Assembly: GCA_946007485.1 (NCBI GenBank)
Contig: CAMGAM010000001.1
Coordinates: 1 to 37,537 of the forward strand
Source: an uncultured Mycoplasmatota bacterium
Lineage (GTDB): Bacteria; Bacillota_I; Bacilli_A; RF39; UBA660
Direction of reading: 5' to 3'
DNA length: 37,537 bases
Shown here: positions 1,213 to 8,141 of the stretch, in pieces
Layout of the letters: the number at the start of each line of letters is the position of its first letter
How positions within the stretch are numbered: the stretch's first letter is position 1
Made by a program: the position numbers and the translations under genes
The notes under the pieces: model-generated
The model's database searches: none
Told to the model about the DNA's origin: nothing
What the model saw: only the letters and a program-made list of their open reading frames with translations

Positions 1213-1253
1213 TAATTAAAGATAGATTAGGTTATATTTAATAGGTGAAAAAT

Positions 1254-3527
1254 ATGAAAAATAGGAAGATATATTTTATAATAGTTGTAGTTTTAATGGC
1301 ATTATTAATAAGTGTTGGTAGTTATGCTTATTGGAGTTGGACTAGTAATGAGAATAAAGCAGTTGTTTTTAATACCAGTAAGAATATTCAAGAATATATC
1401 GTTTATGATGAGGGAGAATCTAAATTTGTTGGAGACTTTAAGGTAGGAAGCAGTTATTTAGATGGAGTACATACGACAGTATCTATTCATAAGACTAGTG
1501 AAGCAGCAAATATTATTTTATATGCATCAATTAATATGAGAATAAAAGAAATAGGTGCTAATCTAGCTAATAGTGAAGGATTAAAGTGGGTAATAACTAG
1601 TGGTGATAGTAATTCAAGTGGAGAGGTATTAGCATCTGGAGATTTTTATGGAAGTAAAAGTAATGATGAATTTATTATTTTAGATAATATTGAAGTAACA
1701 GAGACTTTAACTTCATATACCGTGTGGATTTGGTTAGATGAAGGATATGCTACAAGTGAAATGACAGGAGAAAAAATTGATACGGCTATATGGACACAAG
1801 TTGATCAATACCCTGAGAATAATTTTGAAGTTACTAATTTAAGTAATAATTATCAAGTAATAAATGCAACAGTAGTAAATTCAAATAATAATATAGTTAG
1901 TTATGCAGTAACTGATAGTAATATAGAACCAGTTAAGAATAAAATTGATAAGGTAGTAGCATCACCATTAGTAAGTAGAAGTAATGATAGTGAATTAACT
2001 ATGTTAGCAGATAGTACTAACTGGATAGATATACCAGTAGAAGATCAAAAGAAAGTATATGTATTTAAATATGTAGTAAATAATACAGGAACATATTATT
2101 TATGGTTTAAAGATAGTAGTGGTAAAGTAATAAGTAAAGAGATAACAGTTAGTAATATATCTACTGATAAGCCAGCATGTACATGGTCTAATCCTAGTAG
2201 TAGTACAATTAAAGATGGAGAGAATACAACAATTGCTTTAACATGTATTGATACATCATCAAAGATTATAGATTCAGATATAAGTATCAGTGATATTAAT
2301 ATATCAAGTACAAGTATTAATGTATCAGATAGTATTGTAAAAGAAAGAATAAAGAATGGATATAAATATACCTTTACGGTAAATACAGGTAGTGATACTG
2401 GAAGTAGTACAATAATAATACCAGCTAATTTATTTACTAATGAATTTAATCTAGGTAATGATGAAGTAATAAGTCCTAGTATTACTCATTCAGCTGTATA
2501 TAACATTACATATAAAGATGTTGGTGGTAGTGAATTTAGTGGAGTACATGAAAGTGGATATCCACAGACATATAATTCAGGTGAAGAAACAATCCTTGAT
2601 TTACCAAGTAAGAATGGATATACATTTAATGGATATTATTTAAATAGTGATGGCTCAGGTGATAGAATACCAAGTATAAGTAATACACTAACTGGAGATA
2701 TAACTTTATATGTCAAATGGATAGATGATAAACCATATGGAGTAGCTAATTTATCTTTAAATGATGGAAGATTTACATTGACATTAAGTAATTATGGAGA
2801 TGATGGTTCAGGATTAACAGGTACTTATGGTTTTTCACTTATAAGCAGTGGAAGTTGTGAGAATGCAACATATACAAGTCAAACAGGTCTATCTAAAACA
2901 TATAGCGAAAATTTAAGTAATAATGTTGAATATTATGGATGTATAAAATTAGAAGATAATGATGGTAACATTGCTTATATAAAATCATCTGGAATATATT
3001 ATAAACATACATCTGGTCAACAAACATATACGACATCAGGAGAGTATGAATTTATTGTTCCAGCAACAGGAACATATAAAATAGAATTATGGGGAGCAAG
3101 TGGTGGTAATATTAGTTATGCCAAAAATGGTGGATATACTTCTGGAGAAATAATATTAAAAAAAGATGAAAAAATTTATATATACATTGGAGAAAAAGGA
3201 CATGAAAGATGTCAGCCATATACAAGTTGTACAGGTCTATCATATAATGGTGGTGGTGCAGGTGGATATTTTACCCATTCATCATATAATCCAAGAAATC
3301 CAAGTGGTGGCGGAGCAACAGATGTTAGGTTAGTATCTGGCAATTGGGATGATAGTACAAGTTTAAAAAGTAGAATAATGGTGGCTGCTGCAGGTGCTGG
3401 TATTTTAGGATTTGAAAATGCATATAACGGTTCAGCAGGTGGATTAATTGGTTATTCAGGTTATAAAGGAACAACTAGTGGTATAATTGCATCAAGTGGT
3501 GGTACACAAGTTTCTGGAGGTTCATGA
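1254..3527 (+). CDS. Giant modular glycine-rich surface protein, N-terminal segment (ends at in-frame TGA 3525-3527)
   Basis: SD AGGTGA (1242-1247) precedes ATG 1254; the ORF track starts at GTG 1245. N-terminal anchor/signal IYFIIVVVLMALLISVGSYAYWSW. One Listeria-Bacteroides (InlB B-repeat/Flg_new-like) repeat, YNITYKDVGG...GYTFNGYY...LYVKW. A glycine-rich domain then starts at YTTSGEYEFIVPATGTYKIELWGASGGN and is cut mid-domain by the TGA. Confidence 0.75.
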   Translation: MKNRKIYFIIVVVLMALLISVGSYAYWSWTSNENKAVVFNTSKNIQEYIVYDEGESKFVGDFKVGSSYLDGVHTTVSIHKTSEAANIILYASINMRIKEIGANLANSEGLKWVITSGDSNSSGEVLASGDFYGSKSNDEFIILDNIEVTETLTSYTVWIWLDEGYATSEMTGEKIDTAIWTQVDQYPENNFEVTNLSNNYQVINATVVNSNNNIVSYAVTDSNIEPVKNKIDKVVASPLVSRSNDSELTMLADSTNWIDIPVEDQKKVYVFKYVVNNTGTYYLWFKDSSGKVISKEITVSNISTDKPACTWSNPSSSTIKDGENTTIALTCIDTSSKIIDSDISISDINISSTSINVSDSIVKERIKNGYKYTFTVNTGSDTGSSTIIIPANLFTNEFNLGNDEVISPSITHSAVYNITYKDVGGSEFSGVHESGYPQTYNSGEETILDLPSKNGYTFNGYYLNSDGSGDRIPSISNTLTGDITLYVKWIDDKPYGVANLSLNDGRFTLTLSNYGDDGSGLTGTYGFSLISSGSCENATYTSQTGLSKTYSENLSNNVEYYGCIKLEDNDGNIAYIKSSGIYYKHTSGQQTYTTSGEYEFIVPATGTYKIELWGASGGNISYAKNGGYTSGEIILKKDEKIYIYIGEKGHERCQPYTSCTGLSYNGGGAGGYFTHSSYNPRNPSGGGATDVRLVSGNWDDSTSLKSRIMVAAAGAGILGFENAYNGSAGGLIGYSGYKGTTSGIIASSGGTQVSGGS

Positions 3528-5159
3528 AAAAACACAGGTACATTTGGAAAAGGTGGGAATGGTTATATAAGTAAACCAAATTCCCCTAATAATAATGATG
3601 CCACCGGAGCTGGTAGTGGTTATTGGGGAGGTGGTGGTGGACAAAGTGGCACTCCTACTGATACAAGCACTGGTGGTGTTTCAAATGGATCTGGTGGCTC
3701 ATCATATATAAGTGGCCATACTGGATGTGTTGGAATTGAGTCTTCTTCTAGTACAGCTGCTAGAACTGGTACTGATGGTGCTAGCTGTACTACTGGAACA
3801 AGTGATAATTTATGTAGTATCCATTATAGTGGAAAGAAGTTTTCTGACACAGTGATGATAGATGGAGCTGGTTATGCTTGGACTAATACGAAAGGTTCTT
3901 TAGAACAAATGCCTAATCCGAATGGTGGATATTACGATAATGGAGTAGGACATTCTGGTGATGGCGCTGCTCGTATTACTTGGAATTATATTATTAACCA
4001 ATCAACAATTATATTGACATATGATAATCAAGGTGGAAGTGAATGTTATTCAAAATCAATCACTAGTGGTTCTACATATGGAGAATTATGTATTCCAGTA
4101 AGAGATGGATATAGTTTTGGTGGATGGTATACAGAAGCAAGTGATGGTACTGAAATAACGGCATCAACAATAGTGTCAGAAACTGTAGATCATACGATAT
4201 ATGCACATTGGACTGAAGCAACTAATCCAATAATTAATTTTAGTAATAATGGAAATAGTGAATATGTATCTGGTAATATTTCTAGTAAAATTAATGTATC
4301 TCGTGGAAGTACAGATTTAGATTTAAACAGTTTTAAATATATATATTCTACAGATAGGAATGCTACTCCTGATACGATATTTTATAGAGGATATGAATAT
4401 ACACTAGAAAATGCTACGGGAATATATTATTTAATAGCTAAAGCCTGTGATGTTAATGGTAATTGTACAATGGAAGTGTCTAATCCCTTTTATGTAGATA
4501 ATAGTGCACCAAGTGGTAGTTTGATTCTTAATACTGGTAAAAGTTCTATTAATATTGAAGTTAATGCCGGCGATCAAGGTAGTGGGATTAATACTTATGA
4601 ATATTTAGCAACATTGGATAGTAGTTGTCCAATTACCGGATATGTAAGTTCAAATAATTCAAGTTATACTGTTTATTTATCTGAAAGTGGAAATTATACA
4701 GTATGTGTAAGAATTACCGATAAAGTTGGCAATAATATAATCGTTTCAAATAATATTGAGTTAGAAAGAAAAAATACTTTACCATATGGAAGAGCAGATT
4801 TATCTTTAAATGATGGTATATTTACTTTAAGTTTATCAGATTATGGAGATGAAGGAGGAGACTTATTAAATACATTTGGATTTGCAATTATAAGTAGTGG
4901 TAGTTGTGAAAGTGCAACATATGAATATCATGAAGAATTATCTAAAATATATAGTGGAAATTATATTAGTGGAACTATTTATTATGGGTGCATAAAATTA
5001 GAAGATAGTGATGGAAATATTACTTATGTAAAATCTTCTGGAATAGAATATATATATGGTGAGGGAACACAATTGTATACGACATCAGGAGAATATGAAT
5101 TTATTGTTCCTGAAACTGGTACATATAAATTAGAAGTATGGGGCGCTCAGGGTGGAAAT
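2733..5159 (+). repeat. Intragenic direct repeat pair R1 (copies 2733-3110 and 4782-5159)
   Basis: PYG.A.LSLNDG.FTL.LS.YGD...GCIKLED.DGNI.Y.KSSG...YTTSGEYEFIVP.TGTYK is encoded twice, offset 2049 nt. The nucleotide sequences align clearly by eye, roughly three quarters identical. Confidence 0.8.
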
Positions 5160-8141
5160 GGTACAAGTACTTATAAAGGTGGATATGGAGGATATTCAAC
5201 CGGGTTTATAAATTTACAAAAATCGGAGACTATTTTTATAAATGTAGGTGGTGTTGGCAGTACTGGTAAATCGGCATCTGGAGGATATAATGGAGGCGGT
5301 GAATCTGGAAATCAAGAAAGTACAGGTGGCTCCGGTGGTGGGGCGACTCATGTTGCTACAGTTAGTGGCCTTTTATATAAATTGTCGTCACAAAGGGATT
5401 CTATATTAATTGTTTCAGGCGGAGGCGGTGGCGGAGGATATTATTCGGATGGTAATTCTGGTTATGGTGGACATGCTGGAGGATATATTGGAAATAATGG
5501 AACATCAACTAAGTCATCGGATAGAATAGGAAAAGGTGGAACACAATTAAGTGGTGGAGTTGTAGAAATACGAGGTGATATTTTACCTTATTCTGGTTCT
5601 TTTGGTCAAGGTGGAACAATGCCTTCAACAGTAACTCAAATATCAGGAGGCGGTGGAGGTGGTTGGTACGGTGGTTCTTTTGGTGGAGACTATGGAGCCG
5701 GTGGCGGAGGCGGTTCAGGATATATTGGAAATAGTTTATTAACTGATAAATATATGTATTGTTATAATTGTACAACATCAGATGATGTTAATACTAAGAC
5801 ATACACAACAACTAATGTATCAGATACGCCAACTAGTGATTATGCAAAGTCTGGAGATGGAGCTGCTCGCATTACTTGGAGTATTATTAATAATCAATCA
5901 ACTATTATTTTGATATATGACAATCAAGGAGGAAGTGGATGTTATTCTAAATCGGTTACTAGTGGTTCTATATATGGCGAATTATGTACTCCAGTAAAAG
6001 ATGGATATATTTTTAATGGATGGTATACAGAGATAAGTGGTGGTACTGAAATTACTTCATCAACTACTGTATCAGAAACAGTAGATCATACAATATATGC
6101 ACATTGGACTGAAGCAACTAATCCAGTAATTACATTTAGTAATAATGGGAATAGTGGATATGTATCTGGTAATATTTCTAGTGTTATAACAGTATCTAGA
6201 GGAAGTAATAATTTAGATATGACAACATTTAAATATATATATTCAACCAATATTGATGATACTCCAAACATTGAGTTTAAAAATGAAAATAGTTATATAT
6301 TAGAAAATGCAACAGGAATATATTATTTAATAGCTCAGGCATGTGATGTTAATGGTAATTGTACAACAGAGGTATCTAATCCGTTTTATGTAGATAATCA
6401 AGGTCCTAATGGTGAAATTACCTCGATGACTTCTAATCTTAATACTTTAATAGTTAATGTAAGTGCTAGTGATACTCATAGTGGAGTAAGTGGATATGGA
6501 TATTTGATTCAAACAGATAACACTTGTCCGGCTACAGGATATGTTAGTTCAAATAATTCAAGTTATACATTTAATGTATCAAGTAGTGGAGTATACTATG
6601 TGTGTGTTAAAATAATTGATAATGTTGGTAATGTAAATATTATATCTAAGAGTTTACTTGTTGAATTTGAAATTAACTATCAAAATATTTCTAGTAATTA
6701 TAGTTGTGCTAATTCATCAGCTGGAACAAATCCGATATTTACTTATACAGGTAATTGTCAGATTATTAATGATGGTAATGGCGATTATAGAATTAAATTT
6801 TTAACTAGTGGTGAATTTACAAACAATGTTACATTAAAGTTAGATTTATTCTTAGTAGGCGGCGGAGGCGGTGGTAGATCTGGTATTGGTGGCGGAGGCG
6901 GCGGTTATACGAAAACTTATCCGAATGAAACAATTAATCCAAATACTTATACAATAAACGTTGGTGCTGGCGGTGGTGTTTCAAGTGCAGGTGGAACAAG
7001 TTATTTTGGAAATTCATCATTATATTTTGCAAATGGTGGTAATGGTGCTTCATCATCTGCTGGTTCTGGTGGCTCAGGTGGTGGTGGAAACGGATGCTTT
7101 CATGATACCGTTAATGATGGAGAAATATGTAAACACTGTGGTTCAACATATTTCGGTAATGGTGGTAGATTTGGTAATAATGGAGAATCAGGAGGCAATA
7201 ATATTGAATATGGATGGAATAATTGTACTGGTATTAGTGGAGGTGCTGGGCAAGGAACTACGACTTGTGAATTTGGAGAAGGTACACTAGGTAGTTGTAA
7301 AACCGGTATATCTGAATATTCACGAGGAGGAAGAGGAGCGACTGCTACGGCTAATTCTGGAAATGGTGGAAATGAAAATGCGGCTGGTTCATCAGGAATT
7401 GTTATTATTCGTAATGCTAAAACTATTATTGTTAATGGTATAAAACTAGGTACTTATACTGGTTTATATAAAATTGAAGAAGAAGATTCTACTAATTGGA
7501 AAGTAAAATTCTTATCAACTGGGACACTAACATTAAATAATTCTATAGATGTTGACTTGTTCTTAGTAGGTGGCGGTGGTGGCGGCGGAAGTGATTGTGA
7601 TTCAGATCCTGGATTTTATTGTCAAGCCGGCGGTGGCGGTGGCGGTGGATATACTAATACATATAAGGATGTATCGTTAAGTGCTACAAGTTATGCAATA
7701 AACATAGGTTCCGGTGGCGGTGTAGGAAGTGCTGGAGGAACAAGTTATTTTGGTGATTCATCAACATATTTTGCAAATGGTGGTGGAGCTGGAACATCAT
7801 CTTCTGGAGGATCTGGTGGTTCAGGCGGTGGAAGTGCTTCATGCTGTCGTATGAATACTTCAGTGAATTTTTATAGTACTAGAGGTAATGGAGGCTCATT
7901 TGGAAGTAATGGAGCATCTTGTTCAGCCGATTGTCCATATCAAGGGGGATCATCTGGAGGAGCAGGTCAAGGAAGTACGACTTGTGAATTTGGACTTGGA
8001 ACGACTTCATCATGTAATAGTGGAGTAACTGTTTATTCAAAAGGAGGAACAGGATCTACTTGGATAGAAAATTCAGGTAATGGCGGTAATGTATCTGGAA
8101 GTGGTTCCTCAGGAATTGTTATTATGAGAAATAAACGATAG
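3852..8141 (+). CDS. Same glycine-rich surface protein, C-terminal continuation (frame open from 3528; no SD or signal peptide of its own)
   Basis: Same reading frame as 1254-3527. Codons 3528-3851 have no stop and complete the interrupted glycine-rich domain (KNTGTFGKGGNGY...GSGYWGGGGGQ...GDGAARITW). Downstream are two more B-repeats, Ig-like modules, a second ALK/LTK-like Gly-rich domain, and two LFLVGGGGGG...SGIVIIRN Gly-rich domains. Stop codon TAG. Confidence 0.7.
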   Translation: MMIDGAGYAWTNTKGSLEQMPNPNGGYYDNGVGHSGDGAARITWNYIINQSTIILTYDNQGGSECYSKSITSGSTYGELCIPVRDGYSFGGWYTEASDGTEITASTIVSETVDHTIYAHWTEATNPIINFSNNGNSEYVSGNISSKINVSRGSTDLDLNSFKYIYSTDRNATPDTIFYRGYEYTLENATGIYYLIAKACDVNGNCTMEVSNPFYVDNSAPSGSLILNTGKSSINIEVNAGDQGSGINTYEYLATLDSSCPITGYVSSNNSSYTVYLSESGNYTVCVRITDKVGNNIIVSNNIELERKNTLPYGRADLSLNDGIFTLSLSDYGDEGGDLLNTFGFAIISSGSCESATYEYHEELSKIYSGNYISGTIYYGCIKLEDSDGNITYVKSSGIEYIYGEGTQLYTTSGEYEFIVPETGTYKLEVWGAQGGNGTSTYKGGYGGYSTGFINLQKSETIFINVGGVGSTGKSASGGYNGGGESGNQESTGGSGGGATHVATVSGLLYKLSSQRDSILIVSGGGGGGGYYSDGNSGYGGHAGGYIGNNGTSTKSSDRIGKGGTQLSGGVVEIRGDILPYSGSFGQGGTMPSTVTQISGGGGGGWYGGSFGGDYGAGGGGGSGYIGNSLLTDKYMYCYNCTTSDDVNTKTYTTTNVSDTPTSDYAKSGDGAARITWSIINNQSTIILIYDNQGGSGCYSKSVTSGSIYGELCTPVKDGYIFNGWYTEISGGTEITSSTTVSETVDHTIYAHWTEATNPVITFSNNGNSGYVSGNISSVITVSRGSNNLDMTTFKYIYSTNIDDTPNIEFKNENSYILENATGIYYLIAQACDVNGNCTTEVSNPFYVDNQGPNGEITSMTSNLNTLIVNVSASDTHSGVSGYGYLIQTDNTCPATGYVSSNNSSYTFNVSSSGVYYVCVKIIDNVGNVNIISKSLLVEFEINYQNISSNYSCANSSAGTNPIFTYTGNCQIINDGNGDYRIKFLTSGEFTNNVTLKLDLFLVGGGGGGRSGIGGGGGGYTKTYPNETINPNTYTINVGAGGGVSSAGGTSYFGNSSLYFANGGNGASSSAGSGGSGGGGNGCFHDTVNDGEICKHCGSTYFGNGGRFGNNGESGGNNIEYGWNNCTGISGGAGQGTTTCEFGEGTLGSCKTGISEYSRGGRGATATANSGNGGNENAAGSSGIVIIRNAKTIIVNGIKLGTYTGLYKIEEEDSTNWKVKFLSTGTLTLNNSIDVDLFLVGGGGGGGSDCDSDPGFYCQAGGGGGGGYTNTYKDVSLSATSYAINIGSGGGVGSAGGTSYFGDSSTYFANGGGAGTSSSGGSGGSGGGSASCCRMNTSVNFYSTRGNGGSFGSNGASCSADCPYQGGSSGGAGQGSTTCEFGLGTTSSCNSGVTVYSKGGTGSTWIENSGNGGNVSGSGSSGIVIMRNKR
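3957..6399 (+). repeat. Intragenic direct repeat pair R2 (copies 3957-4503 and 5853-6399)
   Basis: GDGAARITW, the B-repeat, TEATNP.I.FSNNGNS.YVSGNISS and ENATGIYYLIA.ACDVNGNCT.EVSNPFYVDN are all duplicated, offset 1896 nt. Long stretches are near-identical at the DNA level. Confidence 0.85.
6790..8135 (+). repeat. Intragenic tandem repeat pair R3 (copies ~6790-7420 and ~7505-8135)
   Basis: There are two copies of K.KFL(T/S)(S/T)G..T.NN...DLFLVGGGGGG...GGTSYFG.SS.YFANGG...GGAGQG(T/S)TTCEFG...SGNGGN...GSSGIVI(I/M)RN. This pair is more diverged than R1 and R2. Confidence 0.75.

Follow-up and report, generated by a model that had tools for sequence, protein, structure and literature searches.

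Why should a single TGA codon stand in the middle of a reading frame that is otherwise open for some 2,300 codons? The question is raised by a giant surface-protein gene of an uncultured Mycoplasmatota bacterium (GTDB lineage Bacteria; Bacillota_I; Bacilli_A; RF39; UBA660), which lies at positions 1254 to 8141 of the 37,537-nucleotide stretch analyzed here (contig CAMGAM010000001.1 of GenBank assembly GCA_946007485.1, positions 1 to 37,537, forward strand; hereafter, the window). A preliminary description of the window, made from the sequence alone, had interpreted two open reading frames (ORFs) of this locus as one gene carrying a single nonsense codon. Our analysis agrees that this is one gene, indicates that the organism uses the standard genetic code, and favors the interpretation that the codon is a young nonsense mutation. 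The features of the locus are as follows.

1254-8141, + strand: the whole giant surface-protein gene, starting with ATG 1254 behind an AGGTGA Shine-Dalgarno (SD) sequence and ending with the TAA at 8139-8141.
1254-3524, + strand: the upstream part, publicly annotated as a protein of 757 amino acids, with a hydrophobic N-terminal anchor; it breaks off midway through the first glycine-rich domain.
3525-3527, + strand: the in-frame TGA, codon 761 counted from GTG 1245, in the context GGA GGT TCA TGA AAA AAC ACA, with A as the +4 base.
3528-3851, + strand: 108 unannotated codons without a stop or an in-frame ATG, GTG or TTG, encoding the second half of the first glycine-rich domain.
3852-8141, + strand: the downstream ORF (P0041), publicly annotated as a protein of 1,428 amino acids from GTG 3852, without a signal peptide or a convincing SD sequence.
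3063-3872, + strand: the first ALK_LTK glycine-rich domain, recovered by a six-frame genome search as one match of 139 bits with one TGA inside.
5112-5876, + strand: the second ALK_LTK glycine-rich domain, intact in the same six-frame genome search.
1184-1212, + strand: the best promoter-like site, TGGACA-17-TGnTATAAT, with 11 of 12 matches; this is a consensus match only.

A single gene is interrupted by one TGA codon

The ORFs at 1245-3527 and 3852-8141 share a frame, and reading the TGA as a sense codon joins both into 2,298 codons with one odd codon (2,295 codons when counted from ATG 1254 rather than from GTG 1245). The Pfam family ALK_LTK_GRD (PF12810) matched two domains in the gene with a score of 248.4 bits, compared with a gathering cut-off of 24.5, and the match at residues 607-912 covered positions 6-241 of the 243 in the profile, crossing the stop at residue 761. 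The protein further comprises a membrane anchor or signal peptide at its N terminus, three copies of the Listeria-Bacteroides repeat and a pair of Gly_rich_2 domains (PF21722). With E-values of 1e-73 for ALK_LTK_GRD and 2e-14 for Gly_rich_2, the protein resembles the giant bacterial surface proteins with these domains in both domain content and architecture. The nearest in-frame ATG, GTG or TTG past the TGA is located 109 codons downstream, so that the codons at 3528-3851 can be reached only by ribosomes that pass the stop. A strong promoter-like site and an SD sequence for the locus were present only at 1184-1212 and upstream of ATG 1254, respectively. The public record nevertheless holds two proteins (757 and 1,428 amino acids) and leaves the stretch between them unannotated.

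We conclude that 1254-8141 is one gene with a single in-frame TGA inside the first ALK/LTK-type glycine-rich domain. The preliminary description was thus borne out in its central claim, given the shared frame, the one Pfam domain spanning the stop, and the homology on both sides of it (described below). Its statement that the 108 codons from 3528 to 3851 are open and encode the missing half-domain also held, as these codons contain no stop and the Pfam match runs through them continuously; likewise, the first in-frame start at 109 codons after the TGA agrees with its view that the downstream part has no SD sequence, start or export signal of its own.

TGA is a stop codon in this organism

The genome of the window (G000; 951,681 bp in 105 contigs, ~70% complete) uses TGA to terminate 93 of its 766 non-overlapping ORFs (12%). 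Release factors RF1 and RF2 are both encoded, with prfB, the gene for RF2, recognized at 435.8 bits against a cut-off of 370. This prfB contains the autoregulatory +1 frameshift site TGG AGG TCT CTT TGA C (G000:C15, locus L002 ~830-910), and since the CTT TGA C site makes sense only if RF2 reads UGA as a stop, its presence supports the standard code. Mid-gene TGA codons were sought by inspecting every frame delimited by TAA or TAG for a TGA with at least 70 open codons on either side. In the 951-kb assembly, the gene described here was the sole true case, and the remaining matches were antisense shadow frames or adjacent genes with their own starts (contigs C7, C37 and C55). When 296 kb of a second, high-quality genome of the genus (G010, four contigs) were scanned in this way, no interrupted gene was detected, and 11% of the stops there were TGA. 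The organism uses the standard code, and the interruption of this gene is unique within its assembled genome.

As a separate observation, a 343-residue prfB ORF of the kind found in public records misses the first ~25 codons of the gene, owing to the +1 frameshift site.

Homologs have sense codons at the position of the stop

Intact homologs of the same length and architecture were found in P0007 (2,298 residues) and P0020 (2,305 residues), along with P0006 (2,156 residues). P0020 corresponds to G009:C15, from the same genus (2,310 residues when counted from its first ATG); 2,186 of its residues could be aligned with the present protein, at an identity of 57%. Homology to these intact proteins of 2,298-2,310 residues extends on both sides of the stop. 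Comparison of the codon in homologs, a check proposed in the preliminary description, yielded a sense codon (K, A or G) at the aligned position in G009:C15/P0020, P0007 and P0006, which are only 44-57% identical and so at best putative orthologs. The stop is situated just past a conserved GGTQxSGG motif, where a loop differs in both length and sequence from one protein to another; at the position of the stop, the homologs have K, A or G and then a 7-residue insertion. Because the stop lies in this variable loop, the original codon cannot be read off, and an attempt to infer the ancestral codon from the homologs and from the second internal copy of the domain failed, the loop being indel-prone. 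The parallel that the preliminary description drew with the second copy is therefore sound in that the second glycine-rich domain is intact, but this copy does not reveal what the codon had been. Among the codons of the gene that are one step away from TGA, GGA occurs 161 times, TCA 84, TTA 75, TGT 38 and TGG 25; judged by these codon counts alone, the most probable single-step origin of the TGA would be GGA (Gly).

The gene belongs to a family with many copies in this genus of uncultured gut Bacilli, which have small, AT-rich genomes; one genome (G005) contains as many as 37 matches and another (G009) 26. Further family loci in the genome of the window are on contigs C9, C24, C29, C52 and C60, and the architecture is common to hundreds of uncharacterized proteins from metagenome-assembled genomes (MAGs) of gut Bacilli. 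A search for the glycine-rich domain in 121 genomes of the taxonomic family gave ~177 matches, and among the 150 listed, internal stops occurred in two only, namely the domain described here and one in G086. The G086 match (G086:C22:3689-4483) has one TGA and one TAA and looks like a decaying copy. Apparent TAG stops inside family matches of G010 were rejected as interruptions; at the one locus checked, G010:C3:175961-176494, the TAG is within the three codons preceding the start codon, and the other five were assumed to be alike.

A sister species (G007) provides another interrupted gene. Its contigs C146 (locus L013 1-963, minus strand) and C130 (locus L032 1-5809), which overlap by 82 bp, jointly carry a homolog, 2,230 codons long, whose frame holds two TGAs (codon 192, GAA TGA TCA; codon 291, TGG TGA GCG) and no TAA or TAG inside. 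Neither of these TGAs aligns with a conserved Trp. On the basis of codon content, TGA is expected to account for 36% of nonsense mutations in the G000 gene and ~30% in that of G007; the occurrence of TGA at three of the three stops across the two genomes has a p value of ~0.03, which is post hoc and comes from two low-quality MAGs.

The stop is probably a young nonsense allele

No second lesion was present in the 1,537 codons downstream of the stop. In that region, 5.5% of single substitutions would create a stop; at a neutral divergence of 0.43%, a second stop would be absent with a probability of 0.33, a figure that falls to 0.075 for 1% and to 0.006 for 2%. Under neutrality, the stop is thus younger than ~1% divergence, or else the downstream frame is still selected.

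We consider it probable that this single gene holds one young TGA nonsense codon and is an ordinary loss-of-function allele, the gene being a member that its family of giant surface proteins can do without. According to this interpretation, a single base substitution would have turned codon 761, within the first glycine-rich domain, into TGA. The organism decodes TGA as a stop through RF2, so that the main product would be an anchored 757-residue fragment ending in a half-domain and the gene would be effectively knocked out. The event would be young because the 1,537 downstream codons have no second lesion. Loss of the gene would be tolerated in a redundant family of presumably dispensable surface proteins, and near-cognate reading of the UGA by tRNA-Trp may yield a little full-length protein as an unselected by-product. 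The sole mid-gene stop of the assembly falls in a gene that makes up 0.7% of the genome, which fits purging of such stops from core genes and their tolerance in a redundant surface family. Among the explanations listed in the preliminary description, the recent nonsense allele is the one we favor; an error in the consensus is less probable, as discussed below, and low-level, unprogrammed readthrough may occur.

Premature stop codons in inlA of Listeria monocytogenes are a well-known case of nonsense truncation of a surface protein. The present gene resembles it in that one nonsense substitution truncates a large repeat-bearing surface protein and leaves the rest of the gene intact; Listeria-Bacteroides/InlB-type B repeats are present here too, and the inlA allele is tolerated, the protein being dispensable in many niches. 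Unlike inlA, the anchor in the present protein is N-terminal, so the fragment stays on the cell and is not released, and the organism is an uncultured commensal.

Several points weigh against this interpretation. The absence of downstream decay fits continued translation equally well. The TGAs of the G007 gene hint at a specific tolerance of TGA, and the tRNA-Trp of the lineage has features reported to raise UGA reading (PMC13092985). Finally, conspecific sequence over the stop was not found in the protein collection or the Joint Genome Institute (JGI) metagenomes, which leaves room for an error or a minority variant.

A possible consensus error or strain variant

If the TGA were an artefact of the assembly or consensus, or a variant from a minority strain captured in the MAG, the real gene would be intact; we regard this as unlikely. 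The genome is a fragmented MAG. Within the genus, TGA-interrupted family members were otherwise seen only in G007, a genome just as fragmentary (160 contigs, 70% complete), and its gene is broken over the two contigs whose 82-bp overlap is near the stops. The better genomes (G005, G009, G010 and G013) have no interrupted copy, and an intact gene would likewise show zero further lesions. Against these considerations, substitution errors in short-read consensus sequences are rare and stop-creating ones are rarer still (~5% of substitutions); there is no frameshift, N or other anomaly near the stop; and the site falls within the domain's divergent core, away from the near-identical internal repeats that are prone to mis-assembly. 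An exact look-up of the 1,428-residue product retrieved no other copy, the exact products being confined to this contig, and scans of JGI metagenomes by protein pattern and by a DNA pattern with NNN at the stop gave no match. A cluster look-up retrieved only a 146-residue N-terminal fragment from a 635-bp contig in ENA (P0124), which is 90% identical and ends well before the stop; it indicates that a close relative of the gene is present in at least one other sample.

Possible leaky readthrough and the tRNA-Trp of the genus

Alternatively, the TGA could be a maintained attenuator, with leaky readthrough giving mostly the short anchored form along with a few per cent of a 2,295-residue protein into which Trp has been inserted. 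We judge this quite unlikely, even though several observations are compatible with it. The stop is in the UGA-A context, which Engelberg-Kulka is said to have recognized as leaky in E. coli in 1981. The 1,537 downstream codons have not decayed, and the only two stops inside the G007 homolog are both TGAs. According to Karow et al. (1998), as cited in PMC7918605, readthrough of a catA86-TGA reporter was ~6% in B. subtilis with wild-type prfB.

The tRNA-Trp of the organism is also suggestive. The only tRNA-Trp(CCA) found (G000:C18:5459-5532; locus L117 1501-1574, outside the window) has a U11-A24 pair and an A27.C43 mismatch, the latter reducing the anticodon stem to 4 bp. A24 is the state of the Hirsh suppressor (G24A). 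Within the genus, 12 of 13 genomes have this 74-nt gene with 100% identity, as do three other genera. In the tRNA-Trp of G015, the 28:42 pair is changed from U-A to C-G and A27.C43 is kept, so that the mismatch is conserved and not an error; other genera of the taxonomic family (G020 and G024) have a 5-bp anticodon stem. A second tRNA-Trp-like tRNA in G009 and G010 was considered as a suppressor and turned out to be an ordinary tRNA-Gly(UCC). Fakih et al. (2026; PMC13092985) described the tRNA-Trp(CCA) form that has a 4-bp stem in ~9% of bacterial tRNA-Trp genes and linked it to lower UGA usage; when overexpressed in E. coli, such a tRNA gave ~2.5-fold more UGA readthrough, the effect at native levels being left open. 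The sole tRNA-Trp detected in the genus, with A24 and a conserved unpaired 27:43 position, resembles this UGA-prone form. It differs from that experiment, which used an overexpressed E. coli C27A tRNA, in belonging to a lineage that keeps TGA as the stop in 11-12% of its genes.

That continued use of TGA as a stop also argues against maintained readthrough, as does the finding that the tRNA trait is genus-wide, yet no other in-frame TGA was seen in G000 or in the 296 kb of G010. The stop is not conserved, given that the closest full-length homologs have sense codons and the G007 TGAs are at other positions, and two serial TGAs in the G007 gene would cut the yield to near zero. No stimulatory structure follows the stop, as the 120 nt around and after it folded no better than shuffled sequence (z = 0.11). 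Moreover, the stop cuts a domain rather than a module boundary, and a short form with half a fold would not be a sensible designed product. Belinky et al. (2021; PMC7918605) examined in-frame stops in otherwise intact bacterial genes and argued that many such genes are not dead; TGA is the leakiest of the three stops. The present gene is like their cases in having an isolated in-frame stop without downstream decay; it is unlike them in that their stops were conserved between orthologs, with a downstream ratio of nonsynonymous to synonymous substitution rates (dN/dS) below 1, whereas the homologs here have sense codons. A broader form of the idea, in which UGA is leaky throughout the clade and in-frame UGAs in giant surface genes are tolerated or used as attenuators, would explain the all-TGA interruptions in two species together with their intact long downstream frames; we consider it unlikely.

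A known instance of such leakage is the A1 protein of coliphage Q-beta, which arises by ~3-5% readthrough of the coat-gene UGA by tRNA-Trp. As there, a leaky UGA read by tRNA-Trp would allow one frame to yield two products, one short and one long. The Q-beta stop, by contrast, is at a domain boundary, conserved and essential, whereas the present stop cuts a domain and is not conserved.

The final A of the TGA opens a heptamer, A AAA AAC (3527-3533), that has the form of a classic -1 slippery site in the zero-frame register, probably by coincidence in A-rich DNA. It was rejected as a -1 frameshift site since the zero frame still encodes homologous sequence and the heptamer follows the stop.

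Two genes or a recoded TGA as improbable alternatives

Two separately translated genes, encoding the 757-residue anchored protein and a 1,428-residue protein from GTG 3852 or ATG 3855, would match the public annotation of the locus; this arrangement is very improbable because it cuts one Pfam domain and leaves 108 of its codons untranslated yet open, because 3852 is preceded by no convincing SD sequence or promoter and a signal peptide is absent from the downstream part, and because the homologs are single proteins of ~2,300 residues.

Recoding of the TGA, either as selenocysteine or through a changed code (TGA as Trp or Gly), is extremely improbable. It might be suspected from the small AT-rich genome (27% GC in the window), from the labeling of relatives as Tenericutes or Mycoplasma in some records, and from the lack of TGA at the end of any of the ~23 other genes of the window, although the last of these (0 of 23) has p ~0.05 at a rate of 12% and is uninformative. 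An alternative genetic code is ruled out by the genome-wide use of TGA as a stop in 12% of genes, by RF2, and by the TGA-dependent prfB frameshift site; the lack of any other in-frame TGA in the assembly and of conservation at this position adds to the case. Selenocysteine is ruled out as well, there being no SECIS-like (selenocysteine insertion sequence) hairpin in the 120 nt around and after the stop and, in the ~70%-complete assembly, no selB match over the cut-off and no tRNA-Sec or tRNA(UCA) detected by ARAGORN, which did find tRNA-Trp(CCA).

Other features of the protein

The N terminus, MKNRKIYFIIVVVLMALLISVGSYAYWSW, is a predicted membrane anchor or signal peptide. This segment (window positions 1254-1340) ends in GSYAYWSW, and the corresponding segments of homologs end in GASYAFWSW and GTFSYWTW. 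It matched the model for SipW-dependent signal peptides (TIGR04088) weakly, with 15.8 bits, under the cut-off of 19; a SipW-type signal peptidase may process these giant proteins. When the first glycine-rich domain was searched by sequence against the PDB, no match was returned.

The gene also contains a large internal duplication, in which window positions 2700-5000 and 5000-6700 each present an immunoglobulin (Ig)-like module, the glycine-rich domain, a B repeat and further Ig-like modules. The flanks of the duplication are 66% identical in protein sequence over 263 aligned codons, with a dN/dS of 0.40; this value reflects past constraint only and is uninformative for the time since the stop arose. 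By eye, the cores of the two glycine-rich domains look more diverged from each other than the flanks do.

Significance

If the stop is an ordinary nonsense allele, its importance is chiefly one of annotation, in that two unrelated "hypothetical proteins" and 108 unannotated codons amount to one interrupted gene. It would also add to the cases in which gut commensals have switched off members of giant surface-protein families that they can spare. What was noted in passing on tRNA-Trp may outweigh the stop itself, because A24 and the unpaired 27:43 position occur genus-wide in organisms for which TGA is still a normal stop. The genomes of this genus would therefore allow the extent of UGA leakage caused by such a tRNA-Trp at native levels to be tested in nature, the question left open in PMC13092985.

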